Source of the DNA: Cetorhinus maximus
Lineage: Eukaryota
Length of the DNA stretch: 64,000 nt
Reading direction: 5' to 3'
Assembly: GCF_964194155.1 (NCBI RefSeq)
Contig: NC_135907.1
Coordinates: forward strand, 21,080,001 to 21,144,000
The position numbers were made by a program, and so were the translations under genes. Below, one piece after another: positions 739 to 61,616 of this stretch. The notes under the pieces were generated by a model, which ran no database searches, was not told where the DNA came from, and saw only the letters and a program-made list of their open reading frames with translations. Within the stretch, counting starts at the first letter, position 1. Each line of letters starts with the position of its first letter.

Positions 739-885
739 CTTGACGTCCTCCAGGATGATCCGGCCTCCACGTTTATTTTGGAATTTCATCAGTTTCTCAG
801 CGTGCTCCCGTTCCTCATGTGACTGCTCCTTGAAGAACTCAGCAAAGTGACGCAGGGCAACATCATCCCGGTCAAAGTAAAAGGA
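739..885 (-). pseudogene. Ferritin copy A: isolated exon 2 (exon 1 missing; exons 3-4 not in window)
   Basis: 147-nt exon with AG/GT encoding [49 protein letters not shown]; cognate promoter at 1428-1590 but no exon 1 sequence between them. Confidence 0.8.
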
Positions 886-1427
886 CTGGAGGGAGAGAAA
901 AAACAGAAGGGAGTCGTCAGGCAGATGTTATCCAATGGGAATGCAAAAATAGTACCAATATCATGGTAGATGAGTTACCCATTCTCTATCTCAATACTTT
1001 GCTTTCAATTAAAGGGGCTTACAGCTTAAGGAAACAATGTTTTCTTGCTAAAGAATTTGTTTCATTAGATGATGATGTTGAAAGACTCTATGAAATAAAC
1101 AAGGCACCTGGTTGTATTAGAAGACGTGAGTGAGCAATAATATTTCTTGGAAGTAGTAGTGATCTCAGCTATCAACCTGCACTTGGGTAAAGAAGGAACT
1201 TGAAGTTAAAGAGGAAAGCAGTTTGTTTTCAGCAGTTTAATATTGTCAGTGGCAAGTGCAGGGATCCAGCTTCAGGAATACCAGACAGGGTTGTCAGCAT
1301 TTTACTCAATTAGAAAATGAGATAAAAACTGGTCAGAACCAATGTTTTACTAATTAATTATCTCATTTTACCCAAGTTAGAAAAGTTGACGCACGCACGA
1401 GCGAGCGAGAGGAAGAGAGAAGCCTTG

Positions 1428-1590
1428 TATTTATACTACTGGACAGGGAATGACATCATCAATGATGATTGACAATCCTGGTTAGCCAATCAAGAATCTG
1501 CCATGAATCCAGGCACCAATTAACAAAGGAGAGTGGGTGGAGTGAGAGACCCAGAGCCAATTAGAGCTTTGGAATACAGGCAGTTTTGGA
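1428..1590 (-). promoter_or_regulatory. Ferritin-type promoter of copy A (TATAAATA plus CCAAT boxes)
   Basis: TATAAATA on minus strand at 1428-1435, TGACATCA and several CCAAT motifs; homologous to the promoters of the other copies. Confidence 0.7.
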
Positions 1591-4349: not shown

Positions 4350-6350
<2,001 letters not shown>

Positions 6351-6391
6351 CTAGAAAGTTCCAGAACTGACCCTTCTAACACAAGCTCTTG

Positions 6392-6545
6392 TATTTATAA
6401 TACTGGGCCAGCGACAATGATGATTGACAATTCCCAATAGCCAATCAGGAATCTGCCATGATTCCAGGCACCAATAAGGGAGAAGGGGTTGGGGTGTGAT
6501 TCCCAGAGCCAATCAGCTTTGGAATGCAGGCAGTTTTGGATGATT
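6392..6545 (-). promoter_or_regulatory. Promoter of ferritin copy B
   Basis: TATAAATA (6392-6399, minus) about 60 nt upstream of the ATG, with three CCAAT motifs. Confidence 0.7.
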
Positions 6546-10350: not shown

Positions 10351-10462
10351 AAAATTAGCTGAAGAATTATGGAGATAACAACTAGTTCCATGAATACGGA
10401 TTTATTTCCATAATCAGTAACAGAAATCAGGATTGGATTACAATTCAACTCCAAAATCCCAG

Positions 10463-11055
10463 TCAATGAAGAGTGAGCATGTCCAACAGGTACTCTCCCA
10501 TACCATTCTCAGGGGCTCCCAGTCTCTTCAGGTTGGTGATGTGATCTCCAAGCTTCTTGACCATCTTCACTTGCTCATCCAAGTAGTGAGTCTCCAGGAA
10601 GTCACAAAACTGAAAGAAAGACAATGGGAGAGAAATTAAAGATATTAGAGGGGGTCTTTCCTGGATGAAAATAAGATAAGAACTTTTGTCACGGAGTAAA
10701 AACACTGCTCATGGGTTATGCAGGTAATTCTGGTTAAAATGTGCCCAGGTAGAAAGTCAATTCCAATCAACTGGGAGTGAGTGAGTGACTCAAGAAACAG
10801 ATCTCACAATCTAAATGCCTGGGAACTGGGATCCAGGTCTACAAGGTTTCCATTAGTCATTTACAGTCTTCATTGGAAACCTATATGCAATTCTAGAGTG
10901 AAGGGCAGATTCCAATATCAGCAACTTACATGAGGGTCAGTGTTCCCCAAGGAGAGCTTGTGCAGATCCAGCAGACTCTGGTTCACATTCTTCTCCATCT
11001 GCAGAGCTCTCTGCATTGTCTCCAGACCATTGCTCCACTCATCCTACTCTGGTTT
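10463..11055 (-). pseudogene. Ferritin copy C: exons 3-4 only, premature stop
   Basis: Exon 3 11055-10930 has CAG>TAG at 11046-11044; exon 4 10609-10463 [13 protein letters not shown]...LTLH*; exons 1-2 not found upstream. Confidence 0.88.
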
Positions 11056-12794: not shown

Positions 12795-12938
12795 GCAGTG
12801 ACATCATCGATAATAATGTCACAAACCTATCTGTATTCCAAAGCTCTGATTGGCTCTGGGAAACCCCAACGCCCTCCTTTGTTCATTGGTGCCTGGATTC
12901 ATGGCAGATTCCTGATTGGCTATCCAGTAGTATAAATA
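12795..12938 (+). promoter_or_regulatory. Promoter of ferritin copy D
   Basis: TGACATCA, three inverted CCAAT (ATTGG) boxes, TATAAATA at 12931-12938. Confidence 0.7.
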
Positions 12939-13008
12939 CAGGAGCCTGGGTTAGAGAGGAGGTCACATTGTTGTTTGAACTTACTTTCTACCACCTTAAA
13001 AGGTTACA

Positions 13009-14879
<1,871 letters not shown>

Positions 14880-15164
14880 ACTGACTGCAGGGAACAATCT
14901 TATTGTTTGCTATTGTATTTGAACAGCCTGAGGTAGTTCAAGGAACTGTTCAGATTTGGGCTTCATTGTGAATGCTAACCCTAAATAAATAAAATATGGA
15001 CTGCATTTTGGCTCATGTTTCTTGTAAATAGTTGTTTGTTTTCAGATTTATACAGTTTGCAAATGAGGTAAATGTTGACAGTCTCTAATTTGGGGTAAGC
15101 CTATTCTGAGTAGAAATGCTGCCTTGCATTGATCTAGTGCCTTTGCACAACCAAACTTGCGAGA

Positions 15165-17630
15165 TCAGTGGTAGATTCTATGGGGTATCTTGTTTGGGAG
15201 GAAAATCTCAATCTGACCCTAGCTGGCTGAACAAGGAACAGTTTGCTACTGGTGATGAATGAATATTCTTTTTTTTTCTCTTCAAGAACAACTCAATCCT
15301 TCAAACCTGTTTATACCAACTGTTGCAAAATGTAGGAAATCTTTATCAGTCCATTTGATGTTCCAAACATTTCAGTCCAGGAGTCAAATCCATTTCTTGC
15401 TCTGGATACATAGATGAGTTGAAGCTTTATATCCATGGAATTACTAGAAATACACTGGGGGAGCTCACTCCCTTCACCACATACTCCGGAGCTGCTCCTT
15501 TCAGTATTCTGGTGAGCTTTGTGAACAAAAGTAGGAAATAACAGCCGTGCAGACCTGGCTTCTGGGCGCTCTGAGCTCCTGGTACTAAATGGAATTATAA
15601 CTTGGTCATTGAGCAATACTGATATACCATCTTTAACTTGAGGGAGGGGAAGTGGTGATCTTCCTTGTTGGAAGAAGATTGAAATTGGTTCTGAAATCTG
15701 TCTCCAGACTCCCAACTGAATCTAAAATTAGGTTAGACTTTGAAGGGAGAGTAAAAGTTGGCAAACTATAGTTGAGCAAAATCTAATCCTTTGGCTCAGC
15801 AAGGAGTGAATGTAGTCAATTAAAAACAGAAGGTAATACCAAGCATGTTAAATGTTTCACTTAACACACCCTGTTCCATTAAATTCAATACCAGCAGCAC
15901 CTCCATAGATGTCTTTTTGACATTTAGTCCCAGTGGACATTTCATAGCCAATAGGAATCATCCTTTCCAAATCCTACTGCATCTCCATTAGTCTCCTTAA
16001 TCCTCAATGATTGAAGCTTTGTTGCTATGACTGCATTTATCCAATGTTTAACAGTTAATCTTAGGAACCTGGATGAGGACAATGTAACTAGAATCTTCAG
16101 TTATGAGATTGTTTATCATGTTAATGTCTTTATATCTCATGTTTTCATATTCCACAAATGGTAAAGGATGATTCTTGGCATTGTGAGCTTTTCATACCCA
16201 TCACCATCCCCACTCCCTACAGGCTGTGATACTGAATTCAAAGATTCCTGTGGAAAAAATAAATCAATAGTTTCCTCAATCAGTAGCCACAGATCTACAT
16301 CAAAGTTTCTGTTGGCCATTGAGTGACCATGTGATGTCCATCAGTTTGGACAAAGCTCTTTGTGCCCACAGGACATTCACTGTATCTCAGATCCTTGTTG
16401 ACCCTAACAGGTGTAAACACCTGGATACATTTCCTGTTCAGGTGGATCAACTGTGCCCATCGGTGGCGTCTCTCTCGAGTGGCTCGTGCCTGCAGAGTGA
16501 CTGGTGGCTCCAGATGTGAATCACTGTCACCTCCATCTGGCCCAGCTAAACTTGAGTTTTAATCCAAGGAAACACATCTGATCGCCTGATCCAGGACTGA
16601 TCCACTTCTGTAATGAAATGGGATGTGCACACGTGGAATCTCAGTGAAACAGTAACATGAGGGGAAAGAGCCAGAGGGAGAGATGTGGAGAATTATTTTT
16701 AAGCAGTGAGTTGTTGTGATCTGGAAAGCACTGTCTGAAAGGATGGTGGGAACAGATTTAATAACTTTGAGGGAAATGGGTATATACATGAAAATGAAAT
16801 ACATTTGTAAGGTTATTGGTAAAGAGCAGGGGTGTGGGACCAGATGGATAGTTCTTATAAAAAAACCCAGCACAGGGCACATGGGTTGAATGGCCTCCTT
16901 CTGTGCTTTATGAATCTACAGTGAGTTAAAGAGCTTCTGAATATCATTTCATTCAGATTCAAATATTCTCCAACCACTTTGAAAATTGACCATTAAAGGA
17001 CACATCTAACATACAACATTGACAGGCAGGAAAAGACCAGCTTCTCCATAAGGCCTGTCCCAAAACCCACTGCAGCAAATGGAGACGTGTCTGTGGGTGA
17101 CACTGGATTCAGTGATGTTCACTCCCTCTCACTCTCACATTTCCATTTCTCTGTCCAATGGTTGCTTTGAAAATCCCCTCACGATGACTTGATTGCTTTG
17201 AATATTGTTTCAGCTTCATCTTTCCTGGCAAATAACAAACTTGTCCAGATTATGAAAAGCCACTTCAGCAAAAGTAACAAATTATCATTAAATTCAAATC
17301 AGAGCGTTAAACAATGAGGCATTTTCACATTTGAAGAAGGTCAAGGAACCCAAAAGCAGTGACATCATCAAGACAAATCTCCCAAACCTGCCTGTATTCC
17401 AAAGCTCTGATTGGCTCTGGGTCTCACTCCCTCCCCCACAAACCCTCTTCTTTGTTAATTGGTGCCTGGATTCATGGGAGTTCCTGACTGGCTATCGGGA
17501 ATTGTCAATGATCATTGGTGATGTCATTCCCTGTTTGAATGCAGGATGTCCCAGTTGTATAAATACAAGAGCTTGTGTTAGAGGGGATCAGTTTTTGAAC
17601 TTTCTAGGTTATACTGAGCAGTAATATTGA
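15165..17630 (+). repeat. Intergenic spacer of the duplicated ferritin unit
   Basis: Highly similar to about 20485-22950; more diverged copies at about 27220-28480, 49650-55540 and 58450-61510. Confidence 0.85.
17358..17565 (+). promoter_or_regulatory. Promoter of ferritin copy E
   Basis: TGACATCA/TGATGTCA, ATTGG at 17410, 17458 and 17514, TATAAATA at 17558-17565. Confidence 0.7.
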
Positions 17631-17632
17631 AG

Positions 17633-19715
<2,083 letters not shown>

Positions 19716-20039
19716 ACTGACTGCAGGCAACAATCTTATTGTAGTCATATAATATGGACCTGCTAGTTCCCAGTAGTTCAAGGAACTGTTCAGATGTGGG
19801 CTTCATTGTGAAACCTAACCCTAAATAAATAAAATATGGACTGCATTTTGGCTTATTGTGATTTGTTTAAATGGCTGCTTGTTTTCAGATTAATGCAGTT
19901 TGCCTTTTTACAACAGTGGTTGAATTGCAAATGAGTGAAATGTTGGCAGTCTCTCCAATTTGGGATAAGCCTATTGGAACTGAATAGAAATGCTCTCTTG
20001 CATTGATCTAGTGCCTTTGTACAACCAAATTTGCGACTT

Positions 20040-20470: not shown

Positions 20471-22956
20471 TGAGCCAGATCAATGGTAGATTCTAAGGGG
20501 TATCTTGTTTGGGAGGGAAATCTCAAATCTGACCCTAGGTGGCTGAATAATGAGCAGTTTGTCACTGGTGATGAATATTCTTCTGTGTTTTTTTTTGTAT
20601 TAAGAACCACTCTCAATCCTTCAAACCTGTTCTATACCGACTGTTGCAAAATGTAGGAAATCTTTATCCGTCCATTTGATGTTCCAAACATTTCAGTCCA
20701 GGAGTCAAATCCATTTTTTGCTCTGAATACATAGATGAGTTGAAGCTTTATATCCATGGAATTACTAGAAATACACTGGGGGAGCTCACTCCCTTAACCA
20801 CATACTCCGGAGCTGCTCCTTTCAGTATTCTGGTGAGCTTTGTGAACAAAAGTAGGAAATAACAGCCATGCAAACCTGGCTTCTGGGAGCTCTGAGCTCC
20901 TGGTACTAAATGGAATTATAACCTGGTCATTGAGCAATACTGATGTACCATCTTTAACTTGAGGGAGGGGAAGTGGTGATCTTCCTTGTTGGAAGGTGAT
21001 TGAAATTGGTTCTGAAATCTCTTGAGATTCCCAACTGAATCTAAAATTAGGTTAGACTTTGAAGGGAGAGCAAAAGTTGTCAAACTATAGTTGAGCAAAA
21101 TCTAATCCTTTGGCTCAGCAAGGAATGAATGTAGTAAATTAAAATCAGAAGGTAATACCAAGCATGTTAAATGTTTCACTTAACACACCCTGTTCCATCA
21201 AATTCAATACCAGCAGCACCTCCATAAATGTCTTTCTTTTTTACTTTTAGTCCCAGTGAACATTTCATGGCCAATAGGAATCATCCTTTCCAAATCCTAC
21301 TGCATCTCCATTGATCTCCTTCATCCTCCATGATTGAAGCTTTGTTGCTATGACTGCATTTATCCAATGTTTAACAGTTAATCTTAGGAACCTGGGTGAG
21401 GACAATGTAACTAGAGTCTTCAGTTATTAGAATGTTTATCATGTTAATGTCTTTGCATCTGTCAAGTTTTCACATTCCACAAATGGTAAAGGATGATTCT
21501 CGGCATTGTGAGCTTTTCATACCCATCACCATCCCCACTCCCTACAAGGTTGTGATACTGAATTCAAAGTTTCCTGTGGAAAAAATAAATCAATAGTTTC
21601 CTCAGAATCAGTAGCCACAGATCTACATCAAAGTGTCTGTTGGCCATTGAGTGACCATGTGATGTCCATCAGTTCAGACAAAGCCTTTTGTGGCCACAGG
21701 ACATTCACTGTATCTCAGATCCTTGTTGACCCTAACAGGTGTAAACACCTGGATACATTTCCTGTTCAGGTGGATCAACTGTGCCCATCGGTGGCATCTC
21801 TCTTGAGTGGCTCGTGCCTGCAGAGTGACTGGTGGCTCCAGATGTGAATCACTGTCACCTCCATCTGGCCCAGCTAAACTTGAGTTTTAATCCAAGGAAA
21901 CACATCTCATCGCCTGATCCAGGACTGATCCACTTCTGTAATGAAACCAAATGTGAACAGGAGATCTCAGTGAAACAAAAACACGAGGGGAAAGAGCCAG
22001 AGGGAGAGATGTGGAGAATTATTTTTAAGCAGTGAGTTGTTGTGATCTGGAAAGCACTGTCTGAAAGGATGGTGGGAACAGATTTAATAAGTTTGAGGAG
22101 GGTATATACATGAAAATGAAATACATTTGTAGGGTTATTGGTAAAGAGCGGGGGTGTGGAACCAGATGGATAGTTCGTATAAAAAAACCCAGCACAGGGC
22201 ACATGGGTTGAATGGCCTCATTCTGTGCTTTATGAATCTACAGTGAGTTAAAGAGCTTCTAAATATCATTCCAATCAGATTCAAATACTCTTCAGCCACA
22301 TTGAAAGTTGACCATTATAGGACACATCTAACATACAACATTGACCGGCAGGAAAAGACCAGCTTCTCCATAAGGCCTGTCCCAAAACCCACTGCAGCAA
22401 CTGGAGACGTGTCTATGGGTGACACTGGATTCAGTGATGTTCACTCCATCTCACTGTCACATTTCCATTTCTCTGTCCAATGGTTGCTTTGAAAATTCCC
22501 TCATGACGACTTGATTGCTTTGAATATTGTATCAGCTTCACCTTTCCTGGGAAATAACAAACTTGTCCAGATTATGAAAAGCCACTTCAGCAAAAGTGAC
22601 AAATTATCATTAAATTCAAATCAGAGTGTTAAACAATGAGGCATTTTCACATTTGAAGAAGGTCAAGGAACCCAAAAGCAGTGACATCATCAAGACAAAT
22701 CTCCCAAACCTGCCTGTATTCCAAAGCTCTGATTGGCTCTGGGTCTCACTCCCTCCCCCACAAACCCTCTCCTTTGTTAATTGGTGTCTGGATTCATGGG
22801 AGGTTCCTGACTGGCTATCGGGAATTGTCAATCATCATTGGTGATGCCATTCCCTGCTTAAATGCAGAATATCCCAGCAGTATAAATAGAAAAGCCTGGG
22901 TTGGAACAGGTTAGTTCTAGAACTTTCTAGGTGATAGTGAACGGTAATAGTTAAAG

Positions 22957-25333
<2,377 letters not shown>

Positions 25334-26560: not shown

Positions 26561-28487
26561 TCACATACCCCCTCCTGCTATTTTACTATAAGTTCTACTA
26601 ACATTTAGAATTATATCTTCCCCACACTATCTTAACACCAAAGCTGATTCCTTTGGCTGACCCAGTTGTAAACCGTTTTCTTCTGGTGGATTTCTGAGCA
26701 TTTGCTCGATGCTTTTTTTTTTTCAAGCTGGTATCTCTCTCTCTGACAAACCCAAAACCACACTCAACTCACTCTTACTTCAAATGCAGAGCAAACACGA
26801 GTTTCCTAAACTCAGTTTCCCCCAGCCGTCTTACAGTATTTCTTTGCTGAGAGCTTAGAATTCCTGTTTTCACTCTACCATATACACACTCAACAACTTT
26901 TCTGCCTTTCTCTGTGTCCCTGCGTCACCGGACCCTTGTCACTAGGCAACAGCACCATTCTTTTCTACCTTGTTTTTCCCAAATCACTAAACCCCAACTC
27001 CCTTTTTAGCCAATCTCTCTGTTTTGAGGGGTGTCAAACTGCATTAAAAATGCATGTATACAAACAAACCCAGAAAGCTTGATGTTTTTTTTGCTAGGAA
27101 ACCCTCCGGACTGTCTGGCATGGAGATTTCAGAAAATTGAAATAAAACTATTTATTCCACCTTTCTTGACACAAAAGTATAAATGCTAATTAGACCTGGT
27201 TATACATCATTCTGAACAATACCCATCACCATTCCTGTTTCTTGTAGGTTGTGAGATGGAGTTCAAAGATTTTCCTGTGAAAAGGATCAATCAATATTCC
27301 CTCAGAACCAGTATCCACAGACCTTCATCAAAGCCTCTGGTGTCCAGCTGGGTGGACATTGAGTGACCATGTGATGTCCATCAGTTTGGAGCAAGCCCTT
27401 TGTGCCCATAAGACATTCACTGCATCTCAGATCCTTTTTGACCAGAACAGGTGTAAACACCGGGGTGCATTTTCAGTTCAGGTGGGTCAACTGTGCCCAT
27501 TGGTGGTGTCTCTCCTGAGAGGCTCATGCCTGTAGCGTGATTCGTGGCTCCAGATGTGAATCACTGTCATCTCCATCTAAACCAGAGCTTTAATCCAAGG
27601 AAACACATGACATCACCTAATCCAGGACGGATCCACTTCTGTAACAAAACCAGATGTGAACGTATGGGATTTCAGAGAAACAGTAACGTGAGAGGAAAGA
27701 TCCAGAGGGAGAGATGAGGAGAATTATTTTTAAGCAGTGAGTTGTCACAATCTGGGATGCACTGTCTGAAAAGATGGGGGAAGCGGATTCAATAAAAACT
27801 TTGAAGAGGGAATTGGATATATACATGAAAAGGAAATAAATTTGCAGGTTTATGGGGAAAGAGCAGGAGTGTGGGACTAATTAAATACTTATATCAAAGA
27901 GCCAGCACAAGTCCCAGCAGTTGAATTGTCTCCTCCCGTGTTTTATGAATCTATAGAGAGTTAAAGAATATCCGAATATCATTTCAATCAGGTTAAAATA
28001 TTCTCCAGCCACATTGAAAGTTGACCACAATAGGACAAATCTAACACACAACAGTGGTGAGCAGGAAAAGACCAGCTGCTCCATCAAGCCTGTCCCAAAG
28101 CAGCTTCAACACTTACAAACTTGTCCAGATTATGAAAAGCCACTTCAGCAAAAGTAACAAATTATCATTAAATTCAAATCAGAGCGTTAAACAACGAGAC
28201 ATTTTCACATTTGAAGAAGGTCAAGGAACCCAAAAGAAGTGACATCATCAAGACAAATCTCCCAAACCTGCCTGTATTCCAAACCTCCCCATATCAGATC
28301 ACCCCCACCCCCTCTCCTTTGTTAATTGGTGCCTTGACTCATGACACTTTCCTGACTGGCTATCTGGGATTGTCAATCATCATTGATGATGTCATTCCCT
28401 GTTTGAATACAGCATAACCCTGTAGTATAAATACAAGAGTTTGTGTTAGGGAAAACTGGTTATACAGCTTTCTAGGTAATAGTGAAG

Positions 28488-28589
28488 ATGGCTTCCCAAG
28501 TGCATCAGAACTACCACAAGGACTGTGAGGATGCTGTTAACCAGCAGATCAACCTGAAGCTCTATTCCTCCTATGTTTACCTCTCCATG
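28488..28589 (+). pseudogene. Ferritin copy G: promoter plus exon 1 only (E27K), cut in intron 1
   Basis: TATA 28426-28433; [34 protein letters not shown]|gt; intron 1 homology stops at about 28772. Confidence 0.85.
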
Positions 28590-30859: not shown

Positions 30860-32263
30860 TACACAGTTGCATGGTCCCACAGCTCAAAGATGGCAAATTC
30901 ATTAAGTCAGTGCAGTTCTCAACAAGTTCCTCAAATTAACTTGTAAACATGGATAATTGCAGCCGTAGCATCAACCTTTGAATCTACTTATAGGAGCAAA
31001 GGCAACATTGGAATTCGAGCAGGATGAGTTATTTGGTATGGAATGTTCCTGGTGCCCAAATATATACATGAGTTGGTTTTATAAATTGATAGGCATGGGG
31101 GGTAGTGGAAGGTGAAGCAGCTTTTTAACTCATCATATTTTAAGTTATTTGCTTTACATATTCACTCCATCCAGAAGGATTAGATTGGAGTATGGTTCCA
31201 CACCCCTGTTCCTCACCCTTCAATATATCTACCTGACTTGCAGTGACAGCTAACCTAAATTCACTTGACAGAACAAGAAAGATTTTCAGAACCATCTTCC
31301 TTACCTTATACTTTCACTCACACTAAAGGCCAGAAGAATTATGACATCTCTGGCTGATTGCCCCAATAGTCACCAGTTTCATTCCTTTTAGGATGTTGAA
31401 TGACAGTGTTTTTGATTTGGGGGGAGGGGGTGGAAAAAGTAGTGGGGCTCATACTGAGCATTGCAGTCAGGGCTCAAAGCTTACCAGGAAGTCTGAAGCT
31501 ATTATGAATTTGGTTAAGTGTTTTATGGTATCGCACAGTCAGAACTGAGATTGGCAGAAGCTTATTAATTGATGAAATTGTCTCCTCTCCCACTGCTGCC
31601 TCCAAAAAAAAACTAGTCAGGTCTTTGGACTGACATAGTGCAAGACTAAATTCATTATTTACCTATTCGCACAAAAGTTGCAGCATCTGATTTTTTGGTG
31701 TAATGAGGGAAAGTTGTCATTGATGCAGAGAGTCACCATGCAATGGGAATAGTTCCTTGTATTTATGCTGCTTCAAGCCAGATAATTAGTTGCTCCCCAA
31801 ACTTGTTGCCCTCTAACACAGCTTCCTAAGTTTGGGGTCACTGAACATCACTCCTTAAGTGGGGTCAGCATCAGATTGTTCAGTAACAATTCATGAATCA
31901 TCTTGGGAATATTTTTACCACATTAATAAGGCACTATGTATACCAAGTCGTCATTTTGCAACAAGTTTGAGAAGAGCACATCTTCCCAGATGTAAAGAGC
32001 TGAACACCTGGATAAAGCGGTTACACAGCTCAGTGTAACAATCATTCCTTTCATTTTCTCCACCCTGGATATCGTTTGAAATTTAGGAAGGAAGGAAGCA
32101 CAAGTCAGTCCAATAGTAAGCAGTTTATTTACAAAATGTTACATTTTACATCAAGACCAGGTCACAACTGATGCAAAAGCCACTATTCCCTACAGGACTG
32201 GATTGTTCCATCTCAGATTATACAATACTAGTATTAAACACAAGTTTGTCCCCTGCAGTCAGT

Positions 32264-33209
<946 letters not shown>

Positions 33210-34565
33210 TGAAGTGGATTATAACTGCACACCCAATGGGGACTACCCTAGATCAAGTGCACTCCCTTAATAATCATCATCTTCACTTGGGTTCAAAGCA
33301 ACCACCTCAGACACTCGTTTGGGTCTAAAGTAGTGAACTACACCTCTCCCAAGGAATACGATTATCAAGAGATATTACCTTCTTCCAGATGGCCAAGTTA
33401 TTTAACAGGCTAAGTTATAATCACACAGATATTACAGGTGTCCGCAAGTCTCTCTTTAAAAAAAAATGCAATCTTCCCACTTTCAAAAAAATAGAAGGTG
33501 GGTTCTTAAACGGCATAGATTAGACTACGAGACATTATACATTAAATTTGTAAATAAGTTAGTGAAGAATTATTTAACATACAATAGAGTAGATTAGTGC
33601 ATGACTATAAAAAGATAAAGAATAGTCTTTGTTCTAAGAGAATCCAGTGAAAAAGACTTAATACTATGCTGCGGTGAAAATTACTTTGAATGTTTGATGG
33701 ATATCCATAACTAATGTGTTATCTTAAATCTCCAAATGGCTCAGTTGAGTAGTGGGGCTCATACTGAGTGTGGCAGTCAGAGCGCAAAGCTGGGGTCATC
33801 CAAAATTACACTATTTGTCTTTAACTTCAATGCCCCTATCACCCCTGGGTTGCTGACCTACATCAGTCCCTGATCAAGTAATGGTTTGATTTTAAAATTC
33901 TCATCGTTCTTTAATTGCTTCATGGCCATCCCTCCCTATCTCTCATCTTCTCCAACCTTCCAAGATCTATTGGTGGCTGTCTCTTTAGCATCCCCCTACA
34001 CACCTTGAAACCTGCCTTTTTGACTATCTATCCTTAGTTGTGCCATAGATGTTTTATGATGCCCCTGCAAACCACTGCGTTATTAAGTTATGGACAGCTG
34101 CATGCCACCTTTGTAATGAGAAGTATCAACCCCAACTTCTTACCTACAAGAGAAATCTGAGGGTTTTTTTATTGCTTGGAAATGGCTAGAAGTCACTGGA
34201 CAATTTTAGGTGTTTAACAGTGTTACAGTAATTTATCTTTTGTTGTATTGGGCAATTATTGTTGCCATTTATTTTACACATATTAACTACAATCAGGATG
34301 TGATTTATTGCAAAGTACACAGAATCAAGATTACACCATGACATAATTAGAAGGTCCAATGAATGTCAAGACTCAATCCCATGATCTGTTACATAATAAC
34401 TGTTCAAGTTGTTACAGCCAAAGCAACCACTCAATCTAACAAGGAGGCAGACTTCAATTCATTTTTTAATAATCCATTTATTCAGTTATTTCACATCAAG
34501 AGCACCAAATAGAATCATTCCCTAAAGGACAGAGTTAGGGTCTCATGACATAATCCCCACAGTCA

Positions 34566-34739
<174 letters not shown>

Positions 34740-35847
34740 TTACACCCAGCATCAGATAAGAATCTGAGCTCCCCTTCAAGAGTTGGATTTTTTTTTTGCA
34801 CCTTCTAGTCAAGTGATACAATTGAGATTGATGGAATTACTGCATTAGACTGATGCACAGTAGGTGGGGAGTACCTGTCCACAATTGGCCAACCTCACTG
34901 CTGATCCCAGCCCCAAAACTGAACCCAGGAGGGACACCACAACAACCAATAGAGGTGAGGTCATTTGAACTGGCTCAAAGACAAGTTCCCATCAACTCCA
35001 CTTTACCCAAAAACCCACATTAAAACAGCTTACATGAGGGTCAGTGTTGCCAGAGGAGAGCTTGTGCAGATCCAGCAGACTCTGGTTCACATTCTTCTCA
35101 ATCTGCAGAGCTCTCTGCATTGCCTCCAGACCATTGGCCCAATCATCCTGCTCTGGCTTCTAAAAGAGGAAAGGCAGGCAGCTCATTTACAATGGATTAA
35201 TGAAAATACATGAGAAAGTACAAGAAAAACAGGGATGAAAAAGCAGGTAGAAGCTCAAATTACCAGAAACCAGCGTCAAAATCACAGGTTAATTTTTGGA
35301 TGTGGGAGTCATTGGCTAGGTCAGCATTTATTGTTCATCCCCAATTGCCTTGAGGGGGAAAGACCTTCTGTAGTCCATGTGGTGTAGGTACACAGCACCA
35401 CATTATTAAATTCAGAATAGCAGAATCAAGTTAAACCAAGAAGCATTAAAATAAAATTAGTCTAAGGGGATCAAGGCAGGCATTCACTCATTCCATTAAA
35501 CTCAACCTTGACATCCTCCAGGATGATCCAGCCTCCACGTTTATTCTGGAATTTCATCAGTTTCTCAGCGTGTTCCCGTTCCGCATGTGACTGCTCCTTG
35601 AAGGACTCAGCAAAGTGACGCAGGGCAACATCATCCCGGTCAAAGTAAGAGGACTGCAGGTAGAGACAAAAATGGAAAGGAAGAGTCAGAATTAGACCCA
35701 AATCTCAACCATGGCCAACTAAAGAAAAAGAAATGGCATCTAGGTCGATAAGTTACTATTCTCTACCTCAAACACCTTGTATTCAATTATAAAAACAGAA
35801 TTACCTGGAAAAACTCAGCAAGTCTGGCAGCATCGGCGGAGAAGAAA

Positions 35848-35890
35848 TCAGTCAACGTTTCGAGCCCTCATGGCCCTTCAGCAGAACTGA
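35848..35890 (-). ncRNA. Minimal hammerhead ribozyme-like motif (PLE 3' copy)
   Basis: TCAGTT-CTGCTGA-A-GGGCC-atgag-GGCTC-GAAAC-GTT-GACTGA on the element sense strand. Confidence 0.55.
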
Positions 35891-36237
35891 AGCATAGTTT
35901 CAACAAGGGAGAAATATAAATTGGTTTAAGGTGGGTGGGGGGGAAGAGACACATTGAGGGTGTGGTGTGAGCAGACAATCAAAAGATGTCAGAGACAAAA
36001 GGGTCAAAGAGGTGCCGAAGGTGGTGGTCTTTGTCTGAGAAAAGTGCTAACCAAGAATGCAAGACAGGACACCCAAAGTACAGCTCTAGTGGGGGTGGGG
36101 TGGAAAGACTAAAGGTTTTAGTTTTAGATTTAAAAATAATGGAAATAGGTGGGGAAAGAAGAATCTATATAGATTATTGAAAAAAAAGGTGGGTGGGGGG
36201 GGGAAAGAAACGGGGTGGGGATGGGGGGAGGGGGAGT

Positions 36238-38991
36238 TCAAGATCTAAAGTTGTTGAATTCAATATTCAGCCCAGAAGGCTGTAAAGTGCCTAGTCGGAA
36301 GATGAGGCGCTGCCCCCCCAGTCCGCGCTGGGCTTCACCGGAACAATGCAGCAAGCCAAGGACAGACACGTGGGCAAGAGAACAGGGCGGAGCGCTAAAA
36401 TGGCAAGCGACAGGGAGGTTTGGGTCTTTCCTGCGGACAGACCGCAGGTGCTCCGCAAAACGGTCGCCCAGCCTGCGCCCGGTCTCTCCAATGCAGAGGA
36501 GACCGCACCGGGAGCAACGAATGCAGTAGACCAAGTTAGGGGAAATGCAAGTGAAATGCTGCTTCACTTGAAAGGAGTGTTTGGGCCCTTGGACGGTGAG
36601 GAGAGAGGAAGCGAAGGGGCAGGTGTTGCATCTTCTGCGTGGGCATGGGGAGGCGCCATAAGTGGGGGTTGAGGAGTAGGGGGTGATGGAGGAGTGGACC
36701 AGGGTGCCCCGGAGGGAACGATCCCTACGGAATGCTGTCAAGGGGGGTGAAGGGAAGATGTGTTTGGTGGTGGCATCATGCTGGAGTTGGCGGAAATGGC
36801 GGAGGATGATCCTTTGAATGCGGAGGCTGGTGGGGTGATAAGCGAGGACAAGGGGGACCCTATCATGTCCCTGGGAAGGAGGAGAAGGCGTGAGGGAGGA
36901 CGCGCGGGATATGGGCCGGACACGGTTGAGGGCCCTGTCAACGACCGTGGATGGAAAACCTCGGCCAAGGAAGAAGGAGGACACGCCCGAGGAGCTGTCC
37001 CTGAAGGTAGCGTCATCAGAACAGATGCGACGGAGGCGAAGGAACTGAGAGAATGGGATGGAGTCTTTACAGGAAGCGGGGTGTGAGGAGCTGCAGCCGA
37101 GGCAGCCGTGGGAGTCGGCAGGCCCGCAATGGATATTGGTGGACAGTCTATCATCAGAAATTGAGACAGAGAGGTCAAGGAAGGGAAGAGAAGTGTCAGA
37201 GATGGACCATGTGAAGATGATGGAGGGGTGGAGATTGGAAGCAAAATTAATAAATTTTTCCAGGTCCCGACGAGAGCATGAAGCAGCACCGAAGTAATCA
37301 TCGATGTACCGGAGAAAGAGTTGTGGGAGGGGGCCGGAGTAGGACTGGAACAAGGAATGTTCCACATACCCCATAAAGAGACAGGCATAACTGGGGCCCA
37401 TGCGGGTACCCATAGCCACACCTTTTATTTGGAGGAAGTGAGAGGAGTTAAAGGAGAAATTGTTCAGTGTGAGAACAAGTTCAGCCAGACGGAGGAGAGT
37501 AGTGGTGGATGGGGATTGTTGGGGCCTCTGTTCAAGGAAGAAGCTAAGGGCCCTCAGACCATCCTGGTGGGGGATGGAGGTGTAGAGGGATTGGACATCC
37601 ATGGTGAAGAGGAAGCGGTTGGGGCCAGGGAACTGGAAATTGTTGATGTGACGTAAAGTGTCAGAGGAATCACGGATGTAGGTGGGAAGGGACTGGACAA
37701 GGGGAGAGAGAAGGGAGTCAAGATAATGAGAAATGAGTTCCGTGGGGCAGGAACAGGCTGACACGATCGGTCTGCCAGGACAGTTGTGTTTGTGGATTCT
37801 GGGTAGGAGGCAGAAGCGGGCCGTCCGAGGTTGGGCGACTATCAAGTTGGAAGCTGTGGGAGGAAGATCTCCAGAGGAGACGAGGTCAGCGACAGTCCTG
37901 GAAACAACGGCTTGATGTTCTGTGGTGGGGTCATGGTCCAGGGAGAGGCAGGAGGAAACGTCTGCGAGCTGACGCTCAGCCTCCGCGAGGTAGAGGTCAA
38001 TGCGCCAGACAACAACAGCACCACCCTTGTCAGCGGGTTTGATGACAATGTTGGGGTTGGACCTGAGAGAACGGAGTGCAGTGAGTTCAGAGAGAGACAG
38101 ATTAGAATGGGTGAGAGGAGCAGAGAAATTGAGACGGCTAATGTCACGCCGACAGTTCTCAATGAAAAGATCAAGAGAAGGTAAGAATCCAGAGGGAGGG
38201 GTCCAAGTGGAGGGAGAATATTGGAGGTGGGTAAAAGGATCCGTTGAACGGGGAGAGGACTCCTGCCCAAAGAAGTGAGCACGGAGACGAAGACGGCGGA
38301 AGAAGAGTTCAGCATCATGCCGAGCCCGAAATTCATTGAGATGAGGGCGTAAGGGTATGAAACTAAGTCCTTTGCTGAGCACTGAACGTTCAGCATCGGA
38401 GAGGGGAAGGTCAGGGGGTATAGTGAATACGCGGCTGGGGCTGGGATTGGAAGATGGGGTGAGGACGGAGGGACAAGCAGGGGTGGAGGGTCCCCGATGG
38501 GTGTTGGAGTCGATGAGTTGTTGGAGCTTGCGTTCCTTAGCACTTGAGAGAAAGAGAAAAAGTTTCTTGTTGAGGCGACGGATGAGGCGAAGAATAAAAT
38601 GAAACTGGGGGCACGCGCAGCTTTGAAAAAGGGTGCGGCGGTGCTGCTGGAGGGAGAGGTCAAGTGTGTTCATATGGCGGCGCATGGCACTGAGTGTGGA
38701 TCTCAGAATGCGACGGGAACAGCAGTCCGAGAAACGTTTTATGTCCCGGAGATACCTGTAATCCTGGGTGGGTTCGAAACAAGAGGGATGGAATTTCAGT
38801 TGAAATCCACGTGGGGTGAGTCGGAGACGGAGACAGTCACTGAGAAAGGAGATATGGCTGTGAAAGCGGGTTTTAGTAAACACCTTGTCAAACACCAGGA
38901 GAGAAATGGAAAGCAATGAAGGTGAGCAGGGCAGAAGAGACAGTCGGAAATCCTGTCGGAGGACAGAACCATACTTCTTCCAAGAGGGCAT
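36238..38991 (-). CDS. PLE (Neptune-like) reverse transcriptase / GIY-YIG endonuclease, 917 aa
   Basis: KPADKG, PGRPIVS, DVQSLYT, GVAMG, RYIDD RT motifs; CxxxxCxxC linker; VYCIRC...(Y>C)IGET...RFAEH...HF endonuclease motifs. Confidence 0.93.
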   Translation of the reverse strand: MPSWKKYGSVLRQDFRLSLLPCSPSLLSISLLVFDKVFTKTRFHSHISFLSDCLRLRLTPRGFQLKFHPSCFEPTQDYRYLRDIKRFSDCCSRRILRSTLSAMRRHMNTLDLSLQQHRRTLFQSCACPQFHFILRLIRRLNKKLFLFLSSAKERKLQQLIDSNTHRGPSTPACPSVLTPSSNPSPSRVFTIPPDLPLSDAERSVLSKGLSFIPLRPHLNEFRARHDAELFFRRLRLRAHFFGQESSPRSTDPFTHLQYSPSTWTPPSGFLPSLDLFIENCRRDISRLNFSAPLTHSNLSLSELTALRSLRSNPNIVIKPADKGGAVVVWRIDLYLAEAERQLADVSSCLSLDHDPTTEHQAVVSRTVADLVSSGDLPPTASNLIVAQPRTARFCLLPRIHKHNCPGRPIVSACSCPTELISHYLDSLLSPLVQSLPTYIRDSSDTLRHINNFQFPGPNRFLFTMDVQSLYTSIPHQDGLRALSFFLEQRPQQSPSTTTLLRLAELVLTLNNFSFNSSHFLQIKGVAMGTRMGPSYACLFMGYVEHSLFQSYSGPLPQLFLRYIDDYFGAASCSRRDLEKFINFASNLHPSIIFTWSISDTSLPFLDLSVSISDDRLSTNIHCGPADSHGCLGCSSSHPASCKDSIPFSQFLRLRRICSDDATFRDSSSGVSSFFLGRGFPSTVVDRALNRVRPISRASSLTPSPPSQGHDRVPLVLAYHPTSLRIQRIILRHFRQLQHDATTKHIFPSPPLTAFRRDRSLRGTLVHSSITPYSSTPTYGASPCPRRRCNTCPFASSLLTVQGPKHSFQVKQHFTCISPNLVYCIRCSRCGLLCIGETGRRLGDRFAEHLRSVRRKDPNLPVACHFSAPPCSLAHVSVLGLLHCSGEAQRGLGGQRLIFRLGTLQPSGLNIEFNNFRS

Positions 38992-39138
38992 TTTTTTGAA
39001 GAGAGGTGGCAGTCAATCAAACACAAAGATAAAAACAAAAAGCTAAAAGCTACTGCGGATGCTGGAAATCCAAAACAAAATAAAAACAGAATTACCTGGA
39101 AAAACTCAGCAAGTCTGGCAGCATCGGCGGAGAAGAAA

Positions 39139-39181
39139 TCAGTCAACGTTTCGAGCCCTCATGGCCCTTCAGCAGAACTGA
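39139..39181 (-). ncRNA. Minimal hammerhead ribozyme-like motif (pseudo-LTR copy, upstream of the ORF)
   Basis: Identical to 35848-35890. Confidence 0.55.
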
Positions 39182-41121
39182 AGCATAGTTTCAACAAGGG
39201 AGAAATATAAATTGGTTTAAGGTGGGTGGGGGGGAAGAGACACATTGAGGGTGTGGTGTGAGCAGACAATCAAAAGATGTCAGAGACAAAAGGGTCAAAG
39301 AGGTGCCGAAGGTGGTGGTCTTTGTCTGAGAAAAGTGCTAACCAAGAATGCAAGACAGGACACCCAAAGTACAGCTCTAGTGGGGGTGGGGTGGAAAGAC
39401 TAAAGGTTTTAGTTTTAGATTTAAAAATAATGGAAATAGGTGGGGAAAGAAGAATCTATATAGATTATTGAAAAAAAAGGTGGGTGGGGGGGGGAAAGAA
39501 ACGGGGTGGGGATGGGGGGAGGGGGAGTTCAAGATCTAAAGTTGTTGAATTCAATATTCAGCCCAGAAGGCTGTAAAGTGCCTAGTCGGAAGATGAGGCG
39601 CTGCCCCCGCATGGGCCCCAGTTATGCCTGTCTCTTTATGGGGTATGTGGAACATTCCTTGTTCCAGTCCTACTCCGGCCCCCTCCCACAACTCTTTCTC
39701 CGGTACATCGATGATTACTTCGGTGCTGCTTCATGCTCTCGTCGGGACCTGGAAAAATTTATTAATTTTGCTTCCAATCTCCACCCCTCCATCATCTTCA
39801 CATGGTCCATCTCTGACACTTCTCTTCCCTTCCTTGACCTCTCTGTCTCAATTTCTGATGATAGACTGTCCACCAATATCCATTGCGGGCCTGCCGACTC
39901 CCACGGCTGCCTCGGCTGCAGCTCCTCACACCCCGCTTCCTGTAAAGACTCCATCCCATTCTCTCAGTTCCTTCGCCTCCGTCGCATCTGTTCTGATGAC
40001 GCTACCTTCAGGGACAGCTCCTCGGGCGTGTCCTCCTTCTTCCTTGGCCGAGGTTTTCCATCCACGGTCGTTGACAGGGCCCTCAACCGTGTCCGGCCCA
40101 TATCCCGCGCGTCCTCCCTCACGCCTTCTCCTCCTTCCCAGGGACATGATAGGGTCCCCCTTGTCCTCGCTTATCACCCCACCAGCCTCCGCATTCAAAG
40201 GATCATCCTCCGCCATTTCCGCCAACTCCAGCATGATGCCACCACCAAACACATCTTCCCTTCACCCCCCTTGACAGCATTCCGTAGGGATCGTTCCCTC
40301 CGGGGCACCCTGGTCCACTCCTCCATCACCCCCTACTCCTCAACCCCCACTTATGGCGCCTCCCCATGCCCACGCAGAAGATGCAACACCTGCCCCTTCG
40401 CTTCCTCTCTCCTCACCGTCCAAGGGCCCAAACACTCCTTTCAAGTGAAGCAGCATTTCACTTGCATTTCCCCTAACTTGGTCTACTGCATTCGTTGCTC
40501 CCGGTGCGGTCTCCTCTGCATTGGAGAGACCGGGCGCAGGCTGGGCGACCGTTTTGCGGAGCACCTGCGGTCTGTCCGCAGGAAAGACCCAAACCTCCCT
40601 GTCGCTTGCCATTTTAGCGCTCCGCCCTGTTCTCTTGCCCACGTGTCTGTCCTTGGCTTGCTGCATTGTTCCGGTGAAGCCCAGCGCGGACTGGGGGGGC
40701 AGCGCCTCATCTTCCGACTAGGCACTTTACAGCCTTCTGGGCTGAATATTGAATTCAACAACTTTAGATCTTGAACTCCCCCTCCCCCCATCCCCACCCC
40801 GTTTCTTTCCCCCCCCCACCCACCTTTTTTTTCAATAATCTATATAGATTCTTCTTTCCCCACCTATTTCCATTATTTTTAAATCTAAAACTAAAACCTT
40901 TAGTCTTTCCACCCCACCCCCACTAGAGCTGTACTTTGGGTGTCCTGTCTTGCATTCTTGGTTAGCACTTTTCTCAGACAAAGACCACCACCTTCGGCAC
41001 CTCTTTGACCCTTTTGTCTCTGACATCTTTTGATTGTCTGCTCACACCACACCCTCAATGTGTCTCTTCCCCCCCACCCACCTTAAACCAATTTATATTT
41101 CTCCCTTGTTGAAACTATGCT

Positions 41122-41164
41122 TCAGTTCTGCTGAAGGGCCATGAGGGCTCGAAACGTTGACTGA
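41122..41164 (+). ncRNA. Minimal hammerhead ribozyme-like motif (inverted copy)
   Basis: Identical to 35848-35890 in opposite orientation. Confidence 0.55.
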
Positions 41165-43189
41165 TTTCTTCTCCGCCGATGCTGCCAGACTTGCTGAGTT
41201 TTTCCAGGTAATTCTGTTTTTATTTTGTTTTGGATTTCCAGCATCCGCAGTAGCTTTTAGCTTTTTGTTTGTATTCAATTATGCTTAGTTATTTAAAAAA
41301 GACTAAGAAGTCACTTCAAATCAAGTCCAAAGTCATTGTGTCATGCAGCCTAATTATAACGTGCACTGCAAGCTCAATATTGTGCTTCATCATACTCACT
41401 TGTACAGATGGTCATGGAATCTACCACAGGCAGAAAATGGGATAATTTGCTTAACTACCTACCGTTTAAATCTGGGTGTCAGAGATGAATGAAATAGCCA
41501 CCATTACGTTCAAAGACCTTCTACAACAGGTGGGCTGTAGACAAATCATTTCCTCACCTCCCAGAAACATACATATTCTCCTATAAATCCAGGATTAACA
41601 GCACCCTTTCAAACATTTAAGCGCACTTGAATTAACCCAGTAGGGATGCAGAATGAAAGCTAGCCATGAAGCTGTTACTGATTAAGCTTTGATTGCAATA
41701 CTGTATTAACATATTTCTTAATTACTCAACTTTAAATCATGGCCATATCTAGAAATAAGAGGAACATTGACACTGTCACTTTCATTAGGATTACTCATTT
41801 TAGTACACAACATGAGAGCTAAAAATTTCATTAGAAGTTCTAGTATAGAAAATGAAGTTACAAATTTACAATATTCAGAATGCTACAGCAACAAACTACA
41901 GGAGTTTATTATTGATCATAAAAGAGTAGAAAGAAATTGCATTATATTACAACTTTAAAAAAAACATTACATATGGACCAACAGGCTATTGAAATAGTTC
42001 AAAAAATATAAAACTCACCATGGAGAGGTAAACATAGGAGGAATAGAGCTCCAGGTTGATCTGCTTGTTAACAGCATCCTCACAATCCTCCGTGGTAGTT
42101 CTGACGCACTTAGGAAACCATTCTAACCTACTAAACCAACACAATTTTCTCCCAAGTTTTTACACTTAAGTTAGTGAGACCAAACCATCTTTAATACCAG
42201 GGCCGACATTCCAGCTGATGAGTAACTATTCCCAGTAACCAATCAGAACTCTATGCCCATCAGAGGCCCCCAATCAAAAATGAAATGCAGTGGAGGTGAT
42301 AATGTGGGACAGGGAACGTTTTGATTGGATGATTTGAGCAGACAAGTGCAAAATACTGGACAGGGGAAGCAAAAATAACCAATAACGTTCTTCATGAACA
42401 GGACTCTTTCCTAAAGTTAAACAGGAGACACTGTGTTACCCCAGTGTCATCAGGTCTTTGGCCACAGGATGCAGATGTTTTGGGATGGAGGGGGAGGGAG
42501 TGGTGCAAGTTTCAGTTGGAGGATCTGACTCGCTAGTCCTGACAAAATCAGCAATTTGTCATTCTAGGACTGCTTATGCTCATGGGGTTCCAGGTGGGGT
42601 TGGGGGTGGGGTGGAGGCCGGGGATGGGGGTGGGGTGGGGAGTGGTGTCACTCTGTTTGCCCGCTTCTCTCCCACAGTCTTGTCGACCTCTGGGCAGCCA
42701 GTAGAGAGAGCGTATGTGGCATTCACCAGTACATTTGATGCCATCCGCGGCCAGGCGGCATCTAGGATATAGAGTGTCTTGCAGACGTCAATAATAAGAT
42801 CCTGATTTACTAGGCAAGGTACCCTTTAGTTGTAATGACACTTATCCTCACATTGGCACCTATTTAGTTGACTGGATGATCCCATGTTAGGAGTGGCCTA
42901 AAAGCAAGATATTTCACTCCTGATCTTGGCCTTCTGGTGTAGAGGGAAACAGGAGGTTGGAGGACCTCCTCATGGTTCAGCCCCATGGGCTTGGCCTCCC
43001 ATAGGTCCAGCAGAGCGTAGTCGAGGGGATTGTTTAGCCTGGCTGCCCATGTCTCTTTTGTGGCTATGCCTGTGCCTGGGTGTACCTGGTCAGGTGGTAC
43101 ATAATGCCTATCTATAACTTGAGATTCCTGCGATCGATGGGCATCAGAGGGACTGAAACGTATAGGTAATAATGAACAGGAGGTTTTCC

Positions 43190-46012: not shown

Positions 46013-46268
46013 CATCAAGATGAATCTCCCAAACCAGTTTGTATTCCGAAGCTCTGATTGGCTCTGGGTCGCACTCCTTCCCCCACACCTTTGTCAATTG
46101 GTGCCTGCATTCATGGCCGATTCCTGACTGGCTATCAGAGATTGTCAATTATTCGTGATGTCATTCCCTGTTTGAATGCAGGATGTCCCAGTTGTATAAA
46201 TACAAGAGCTTGTGTTAGAGAAGATCAGTACTAGATTTTTCTAGGTAACTGTAGCAGTAATATTGAAG

Positions 46269-49250
<2,982 letters not shown>

Positions 49251-54844: not shown

Positions 54845-55545
54845 GCTTCCAAATATCATTTCAATCAGATTCAAATATTCTCCAACCACTTTGAAAATTG
54901 ACCATTAAAGGACACATCTAACATACAACATAGACGGGCAGGAAAAGACCAGCTTCTCCATCAAGCCTGTCCCAGAACACACTGCAGCAAATGGAGACGT
55001 GTCTGTGGGTGACACTGGATTCAGTGATGTTCACTCCCTCTCACTCTCACATTTCCATTTCTTTGTCCAATGGTTGCTTTGAAAATTCCCTCACGACGAC
55101 TTGATTGCTTTGAATATTGTTTCAGCTTCACCTTTCCTGGCAAATAACAAACTTGTCCAGATTATGAAAAGCCACTTCAGCAAAAGTAACAAATTATCAT
55201 TCAATTCAAATCAGAGCGTTAAACAACGAGACATTTTCACATTTGAAGAAGGTCAAGGAACCCAAAAGCAGTGACATCATCAAGACAAATCTCCCAAACC
55301 TGCCTGTATTCCAAAGCTCTGATTGGCTCTGGGTCTCACTCCCTCCCCCACAAACCCTCTCCTCTGTTAGTTGGTGCCTGGATTCATGGAAGATTCCTGA
55401 CTGGCTATCGGGAATTGTCAATCATCATTGGTGATGCCATTCCCTGTTTGAATGCAGGATGTCCCAGTTGTATAAATACAAGAGCTTGTGTTAGTGAGGA
55501 TCACTTCTGGAACTTTCTAGGTGATAGTGCACAGTAATATTGAGG

Positions 55546-57972
<2,427 letters not shown>

Positions 57973-60449: not shown

Positions 60450-61513
60450 AAAACCCTTTGTGACCACAGGACATTAACAGCATCTCGGATCATTTTTGAC
60501 CAGAACAGGTGTGAATACCCAGATACATTTTCTGCTCAGGTCGATCAACTGTGCCCATCGGTGCTATCTCTCCTGAGTGGCTCATGCCTATAGCGTGATT
60601 AGTCGCTCCAGATGTGAGTCACTGCCACGTCCATCTGGCCCATCTAAACCAGAGTTTCATTCCAAGGTAACACATCTCATCACCTAATCCGGGATTGATC
60701 CATTTCTGTAATGAAACCAGATGTCAACACATGGGATCTCAGAGAAACAGTAACGTGAGCGAGAAGATCCAGAGGGAGAGATGAGGAAAATTCTTTTGAA
60801 GCTGTTGTGATCTGGAATGCACTGTCTGAAAGGATGGTGGAAGCAGAGTGAAGAGGATATTGGATATATGCATGAAGAGGGAACAATAACATACAACATT
60901 GATGGGCAGGAAAAGACCAGCTTCTCCATAAGGCCTGTCCCAAAACACACTGCAGCAAATGGAGACGTGTCTGTGGGTGACACTGGATTCAGTGATGTTC
61001 ACTCCCTCTCACTCTCACATTTCCATTTCTCTGTCCAATGGTTGCTTTGAAAATCCCCTCACGACGACTTGATTGCTTTGAATATTGTTTCAGCTTCACC
61101 GTTCCTGGCAAATAACAAACTTTTCCAAATTATGAAAAGCCACTTCAGCAAAAGTAACAAATTATCATTAAATTCAAATCAGAGCGTTAAACAACGAGAC
61201 ATTTTCACATTTGAAGAAGGTCAAGGAGCCCAAAAGCAGTGAAATCATCAAGACAAATCTCCCCAATGTGCCTGTATTCCAAAGCTCTGATTGGCTCTGG
61301 GTCTCACTCCCTCCCCCACAAACCCTCTCCTCTGTTAATTGGTGCCTGGATTCATGGGAGGTTCCTGACTGGCTATCGGGAATTGTCAATCATCATTGGT
61401 GATGTCATTCCCTGCTTGAAGACAGGATGTCCCAGTTGTATAAATACAAGAGCTTGTGTTAATGAGGATCAGTTCTAGAGCCTTCTAGGTGATTGTGAGC
61501 AGAAATAGTGAAG

Positions 61514-61616
61514 ATGGCTTCCCAAGTGTGTCAGAACTACCACAAGGACTGTGAGGATGCTGTTAACAAGCAGATCAACCTGGAGCTCTTATTCCTCCTA
61601 TGTTTACCTCTCCATG
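61514..61616 (+). pseudogene. Ferritin copy L: exon 1 with +1 frameshift; remainder outside the window
   Basis: TATA 61439-61446; exon is 103 nt (ctcTtattcc) ending ATG|gtgagt. Confidence 0.8.

Follow-up and report, generated by a model that had tools for sequence, protein, structure and literature searches.

A tandem array of four-exon ferritin genes without a 5' iron-responsive element in the shark Cetorhinus maximus

Do the clustered ferritin genes on C30 of Cetorhinus maximus carry the 5' iron-responsive element (IRE), and what sets their output if they do not? A 5' IRE counts as a hallmark of cytosolic ferritins in vertebrates (PMC4117605). The window analysed, a stretch of 64,000 nucleotides (C30:21080001-21144000) of a 3.99 Gb genome, contained nine exon-1 copies of a ferritin gene and three fragments (Table 1). 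An earlier note on this DNA had claimed that eight copies lack the IRE and escape iron-dependent translational control; copy letters were assigned here by window order, an inferred mapping onto the letters of that note. We interpret the locus as belonging to a tandem array, shared among sharks, of cytosolic ferritins with four exons, a CCAAT-TATA-initiator promoter and no IRE, probably supplying bulk ferritin to the ovary or oocyte under transcriptional, IRP-independent control (probability about 0.68).

Table 1. Ferritin genes, fragments and copy D promoter elements, in positions of the window
Feature	Position	Strand	Remarks
Fragment A	739..1588	-	TATA promoter (1435) and exon 2; exon 1 absent
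Copy B	4350..6399	-	intact, 173 aa; TATA at -67; H62N in ferroxidase centre
Fragment C	10454..11055	-	only exons 3-4; stop in exon 3
Copy D, inverted CCAAT boxes (n = 3)	12849..12919	+	ATTGG at -160, -124 and -94
Copy D, TATA box TATAAATA	12931-12938	+	read in the sequence; ATG at 13009, 78 nt apart
Copy D, initiator-like TCACATT	12963..12969	+	predicted start near 12965; sister-copy retrocopy 5' ends at the matching place
Copy D, predicted 5' UTR	12965..13008	+	about 44 nt, no IRE
Copy D, ferritin gene	13009..14879	+	intact, four exons, 176 aa
Copy D, exons	13009-13110, 13998-14144, 14315-14440, 14724-14879	+	GT-AG introns
Copy D, poly(A) signal	14984..14989	+
Copy E	17558..19715	+	intact, 176 aa; TATA at -75
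Copy F	22881..25333	+	broken by a frameshift in exon 2 and by a 21-nt duplication in exon 3; TATA at -76
Copy G	28426..28589	+	promoter and exon 1 only; TATA at -62
Fragment H	32264..33216	-	exons 2-4; frameshift in exon 2
Copy I	34563..42121	-	broken by a stop and a frameshift in exon 1; TATAAATA absent; ATG at 42121
Copy J	46195..49250	+	intact, 176 aa; TATA at -74
Copy K	55471..57972	+	intact, 176 aa; TATA at -75
Copy L	61439..61616	+	frameshifted exon 1; TATA at -75; remainder past window end

The box TATAAATA, which the earlier note had placed about 60-80 nt above the ATG, was found at 62-78 nt in eight of the nine exon-1 copies of the window, five of them intact (B, D, E, J, K) and three broken (F, G, L). 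TATAAAT[AG] occurred in that range at 12 of the 2422 ATGs of the window, the eight ferritin copies among them. Across the array, TATAAAT lay within 95 nt of the ATG in 23/29 copies of the main array, 5/5 on C2 and 2/2 on C15, and four of the six main-array copies without it carried TTTAAAT near -92. Inverted CCAAT boxes averaged 3.1 per upstream 190 nt in the array versus 0.59 in the window. Many copies carried TGATGTCA upstream, which we take to be an ATF/CRE-like motif. The calls of TCACATT in copy D and of TCAGTT elsewhere rest on an initiator consensus that we assume. One array leader matched the core promoter of FTH1 with equal TATA spacing (score 29, p = 0.004; the best of 30 leaders and one of four tests), which may be taken as a hint of likeness and nothing firmer. 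The element CTTTCTAG in array leaders was rejected as a splice acceptor, because retrocopies run through it.

An exon-2 search of the genome gave 69 matches. The main array extended from about C30:21.077 to 21.275 Mb and, in the 304 kb around the window, comprised 29 exon-1 copies, of which 17 were intact. Offshoots were located on C2 (five copies, two intact) and C15 (two copies examined, both broken, and two further exon-1 fragments). In total, 19 of 36 exon-1 copies were intact and 17 were broken. The array genes had four exons and three GT-AG introns and encoded proteins of 173-176 aa that started with MASQV; the ATG followed directly after the short leader, and a mitochondrial leader was absent. 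The closest named proteins were from sharks. The same genome contained two IRE-bearing ferritins, FTH1 on C9 and a single gene at C30:21.31 Mb (the C30 IRE gene), located 170 kb past the window and outside the array end. As to parentage, a glycogen synthase gene and a Bcl-2 family gene were located on C30 at a distance of 4 Mb and gave support at chromosome level only. Long open frames at 36241-40771 (intron 1 of copy I) and 29701-30935 (after copy G) in the window are presumably retrotransposon remnants.

Several divergent ferritins were also observed. A second cluster at C30:15.85-15.91 Mb (L032-L038) contained eight exon-1 copies, three of them intact, with E59K in the ferroxidase centre and a CCAAT-rich promoter. 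Its TATA box was near -113 in several copies, and Rfam gave no IRE there. Divergent genes flanked the C30 IRE gene: L017 (C30:21283463-21292182, minus strand), which was L-like in having K58 and Q62 at ferroxidase sites and lacked an IRE over 1 kb, and L023-L024 (21345846 onward). Beside the array, a divergent four-exon ferritin (L018:5582-5857; C30:21299582, plus strand) had an in-frame N-terminal extension of 58 aa with zero acidic residues, a hydrophobic stretch and Arg/Gly-rich composition, partially matched in a Heterodontus protein (P0001). The extension may represent either a mitochondrial leader or a signal peptide, and this gene would then be a candidate for a shark ferritin with introns that is organellar or secreted. 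At 4.5 kb upstream of this gene (L018:1068-1108; C30:21295068, plus strand), a decayed IRE-like hairpin with the loop CAGUCA (28.5 bits) lay about 35 nt past a TATA-like run, with no coding exon seen after it. A very divergent ferritin-like gene with introns (L042, C9:93653319-93655490; 33-42% identity by exon) was located 6 Mb from FTH1.

Searches for the IRE were negative in the array and positive in the two control genes. At the gathering score, no Rfam match was obtained in the window, in the 150 kb downstream or in 100 kb of the other clusters, and in the window no Rfam IRE family matched at E values up to 10. The motif C-N5-CAGWGN was absent between the TATA box and the ATG of every window copy; in copies E, F, K and L it occurred only at -282 to -284, upstream of the TATA box and with 1-2 of 5 stem pairs. 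Since absence of the motif from 40 nt is the chance expectation, this result is informative only in comparison with IRE-bearing paralogues, which the same searches recovered (42.7 bits for FTH1, L001; 42.6 bits for the C30 IRE gene, L002). A genome-specific model, built from these two IREs and run with filters off, had its best window match at 19894-19934 (15.5 bits, E = 0.06), past the poly(A) signal of copy E. Over 60 loci, the model returned the two true IREs, five decayed IREs in retrocopies and one decayed hairpin, and the 10 other matches had E values of 0.17 or more. A genome-wide search, in which 82 of about 2.1 million candidates were scored, gave at least two IREs in the genome. When coding sequence, 3' UTR and the 1 kb upstream were scanned with permissive rules for loop and stem, both control IREs were recovered and no IRE was found in the 19 intact array copies; the sole variant-loop hairpin among these was at -108, upstream of the TATA box of that copy. 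Rfam, the genome-specific model and the motif scan thus bore out, for the window and for the remainder of the array, the claim that the cluster ferritins have neither an IRE nor a C-N5-CAGUGN hairpin. The element TGTTTGAAC, present in many leaders and resembling an IRE 3' arm, was considered as an IRE remnant, and decay in place was not supported: 30 array leaders compared with the leader of the C30 IRE gene scored no better than 500 dinucleotide shuffles (mean p = 0.09, best p = 0.44).

Processed retrocopies were used as a proxy for transcript 5' ends, as a fossil 5' RACE. Of 22 dispersed candidates, 21 were examined (C1:231.7 Mb was left out), of which 16 were array-type, four derived from FTH1 and one from the C30 IRE gene. 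Several had poly(A) runs following a signal. Per gene, the yield was higher for FTH1 (four from one gene) than for the array (16 from about 36). The retrocopies show that array genes were transcribed in the germline at some past time. The method was validated by the two longest FTH1 retrocopies, which started at TATA +27 and +31 and kept the IRE; overall, the hairpin was kept in 5/5 retrocopies of the IRE genes (28-48 bits). Among the array-type retrocopies, four of the five longest ended at -45 (L043), -47 (L048), -41 (L057) and -37 to -42 (L058), equivalent to TATA +29 to +39, at the initiator-like motif TCAGTT. The fifth, L049, ended at -67 to -78, reaching to or through the TATA box. The remaining ones stopped at -22 or later, and one (L061) was only 77 nt long. 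None of the five longest had an IRE at E below 0.1 or an extra exon.

In related organisms, contigs from three of four sequencing runs (organisms B, C and D, RNA by our guess) contained array-type transcripts with exon 1-2 and 2-3 joints at the predicted GT-AG sites; the stretch compared ended inside exon 4. Two of these contigs, each from a different organism, had 57 and 68 letters of unread sequence before the ATG. The remaining run, X1, yielded contigs of the C30 IRE gene and none of array type; contig depth cannot rank genes. Together with L049, the two longer contigs show that leaders can exceed 50 nt. The start site is therefore likely to be about 30-39 nt after the TATA box, judged from these ends, with a dominant leader of 30-50 nt and longer ones besides, none seen with an IRE. 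The 5' UTR of roughly 30-50 nt proposed earlier agrees with four of the five longest retrocopies and is too short for L049 and the two contigs. An upstream IRE exon was looked for in the retrocopies and in the 1 kb upstream and was not found. In the 3' UTRs of the 19 intact copies, neither a CPE nor a miR-430 seed, in the forms we take these motifs to have, was present; lacking a CPE, the array thus has no positive sequence sign of oocyte mRNA control.

The array proteins were conserved over the long term and nearly neutral in recent divergence. All seven residues of the ferroxidase set, which we take to be E24, Y31, E58, E59, H62, E104 and Q138 as positioned by aligning the array proteins with solved H and M chains, were kept in 15/19 intact copies, and four had lost one. 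Together with a dN of 0.18 versus a dS of 1.44 from the array to the C30 IRE gene, this indicates long-term constraint. A quick tree was built from 102 rows, made up of 27 of our own models and 75 proteins hand-picked from 211 for full length and taxon spread, none of them from the Greenland shark. In this tree, the array clade (SH-aLRT 99) included proteins from Heptranchias, Pristiophorus, Heterodontus, Scyliorhinus, Mustelus, Chiloscyllium, Stegostoma and Carcharodon. K19 and M141 were diagnostic for the clade across these eight shark genera, and Met141 was present in most array proteins. The C30 IRE gene was placed in its own shark-and-ray clade (97). The array clade contained no ray protein, each search having contributed its best 120 hits; neither the array sister group nor the grouping of the C30 IRE gene with amphibian M ferritins was firmly placed in the quick tree. 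Among themselves, the intact copies had a mean dS of 0.07 and a pairwise dN/dS of 0.61. Distinct changes numbered 42 synonymous and 98 non-synonymous, and omega was 0.64-1.0 depending on the transition bias assumed, its departure being significant only at kappa 1 (observed transition share 0.65). Neutrality cannot be rejected once transition bias is allowed. The pattern fits birth and death of redundant copies inside a conserved lineage. Copies D and K (14724-14879 and 57817-57972), as well as broken copies, had Lys for Glu131, a residue that we take to belong to the three-fold iron-entry channel.

This divergence bears on the first alternative, that the array is mostly a duplication by-product of an unstable region, with a single loss of the IRE, of no benefit, in the founder gene and with drift in most copies. 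The 17 broken copies out of 36, an omega near 1 at realistic transition bias and the loss of a ferroxidase residue in four intact copies all agree with it. We nevertheless regard it as improbable, since the clade was kept in eight shark genera with its diagnostic residues, dN/dS to outside paralogues was 0.12-0.26, and the array-type transcripts of other organisms differed at just 10-13 of about 370 coding letters.

The expansion itself and its ovary expression have been published. The largest 'FTH1/FTL' cluster of the Greenland shark was reported as ovary-specific (Sahm et al. 2024, 10.1101/2024.09.09.611499), and Yang et al. 2026 described an 'FTH1b' expansion in sharks generally, with some copies transcribed in fin and blood (PMC13214024), so that the array is not silent outside the ovary. 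As in those reports, the array consists of large tandem clusters of full-length ferritins, ancient and shared among sharks, with a large cluster beside some small ones; white shark proteins were in the same clade as the Cetorhinus maximus array. What ties the array to the Greenland shark cluster is the tree, together with the description in print, and not synteny. The term 'IRE' was absent from the main texts of both papers and from the five supplementary files of Yang et al. in a term search, the available text of the 2025 preprint of Yang had no ferritin text, and that of the Hin preprint held nothing on zebrafish fthl genes. In the literature searched, most subscription papers being outside its scope, the missing IRE of the array was not found. 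What the present analysis adds is the promoter anatomy, the IRE loss, the evidence from retrocopies and the finding of K or Q at the R23 site (below). The earlier note had not touched on the expansion as known, shark-wide and ovary-specific, on the two remaining IRE-bearing ferritins or on the many broken copies.

Transcription in fin and blood, together with the TATA promoter and TGATGTCA upstream in many copies, would also be compatible with stress- or immune-inducible somatic ferritins that dropped the IRE so that low iron cannot block an antioxidant response. A precedent is the tandem fthl27 expansion of hadal snailfish, read as a dosage gain and reported to protect cells from ROS (PMC10746142). 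We consider this account distinctly unlikely, because the main cluster was reported as ovary-specific and the 16 retrocopies require germline or early-embryo mRNA. Unlike the array, fthl27 comprises 14 recent copies expressed in most tissues. A hidden IRE, supplied by an upstream exon or promoter (for example if splicing joined exon 1 of the C30 IRE gene to array exons) or by a non-canonical IRP site, is very improbable: the IRE at C30:21.31 Mb is upstream of the minus-strand copies on the same strand, L049 and two contigs have longer leaders and the hairpin at L018 is IRE-like, but each array copy comes with a promoter and an exon 1 of its own, none has an IRE within 1 kb upstream when intact, and in the retrocopies array exon 1 is followed directly by array exon 2, with 5' flanks that match no unique array sequence (no match for L048, L049, L057, L058 and L059; only multi-locus repeats for the others).

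With an IRE-less array preferred, the question is which known ferritin system it resembles. Like vertebrate H and M/L ferritins, the array genes have four exons, three introns, ferroxidase residues and a TATA promoter; unlike these, they lack a cap-proximal 5' IRE and have K or Q at the R23 site and Met at 141. The leader was about 40 nt versus about 135 and 205 nt in the two IRE genes of the genome. In salmon, the H1, H2 and M1-3 ferritins were all described with an IRE (PMC4117605). The parallel to FTMT drawn in the earlier note held only for the missing IRE: the array proteins start at MASQV without a mitochondrial leader, and their genes retain three introns. FTMT is likewise IRE-less with a kept ferroxidase centre, tissue-restricted and gonad-biased, but it is single and intronless with a leader of about 60 aa, whereas the array is multi-copy with three introns and no leader (PMC3925988). 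On the best reading, the logic of the array may be closer to that of snail yolk ferritin (Biomphalaria, Lymnaea), the mRNA of which has no IRE and which exists alongside an ordinary soma ferritin (PMC10799875). Schistosome ferritins are a further IRE-less, egg-linked case (by a title in the reference list of PMC1488847), and secreted tick ferritin 2 was described as likewise IRE-less. The array proteins (173-176 aa) have neither the signal peptide nor the 42-aa insertion of snail yolk ferritin; they are therefore probably cytosolic and stay in the cell in which they are made. We infer an independent origin of the array and snail yolk ferritin.

Arginine 23 of human FTH1 was reported to be needed for NCOA4 binding (PMC4592949). 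Arginine was present at this site in both IRE genes, whereas K occupied it in 16/19 intact array copies and Q in 3/19 (copy D, with ferroxidase residues kept and K131 for E, has Q), so that the array proteins lack this H-type feature of NCOA4 cargo. K at this site also occurred in some invertebrate ferritins of the tree. As a tentative extension, the array may represent a third, amplified class of egg ferritin, in which the lack of an IRE (IRP-free synthesis) and of R23 (poor NCOA4 ferritinophagy) would give a long-lived maternal iron store.

How the array would work can be outlined from these features. Without an IRE, IRP repression would be absent and output would be set by transcription and copy number; copy number would raise dosage, with single copies being born and lost. 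The claimed escape from iron-dependent translational control is thus made plausible by 19/19 intact copies without an IRE, by retrocopy ends that fit a proximal promoter and by the negative search for an upstream IRE exon. The schedule would be developmental, probably ovarian, rather than set by iron demand. Extrapolating from the published Greenland shark cluster, expression in the ovary would serve to stock or detoxify iron for yolk-rich eggs, and an oocyte that stocks or buffers iron would gain from ferritin made ahead of the iron rise.

Loss of iron control in the animal is not implied, as both ordinary ferritin genes retain canonical IREs, and iron control of somatic ferritin would thereby be intact. 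A large, intron-bearing, ferroxidase-competent family without IREs would offer a regulatory reason for the unexplained shark expansion and its ovary expression, and it bears on claims that tie ferritin expansion to longevity. If the array is indeed a third class of egg ferritin, it would be the vertebrate counterpart of the IRE-less yolk ferritins of snails and schistosomes, and egg provisioning would take the place of 'ferroptosis and longevity' in the interpretation of the Greenland shark expansion.
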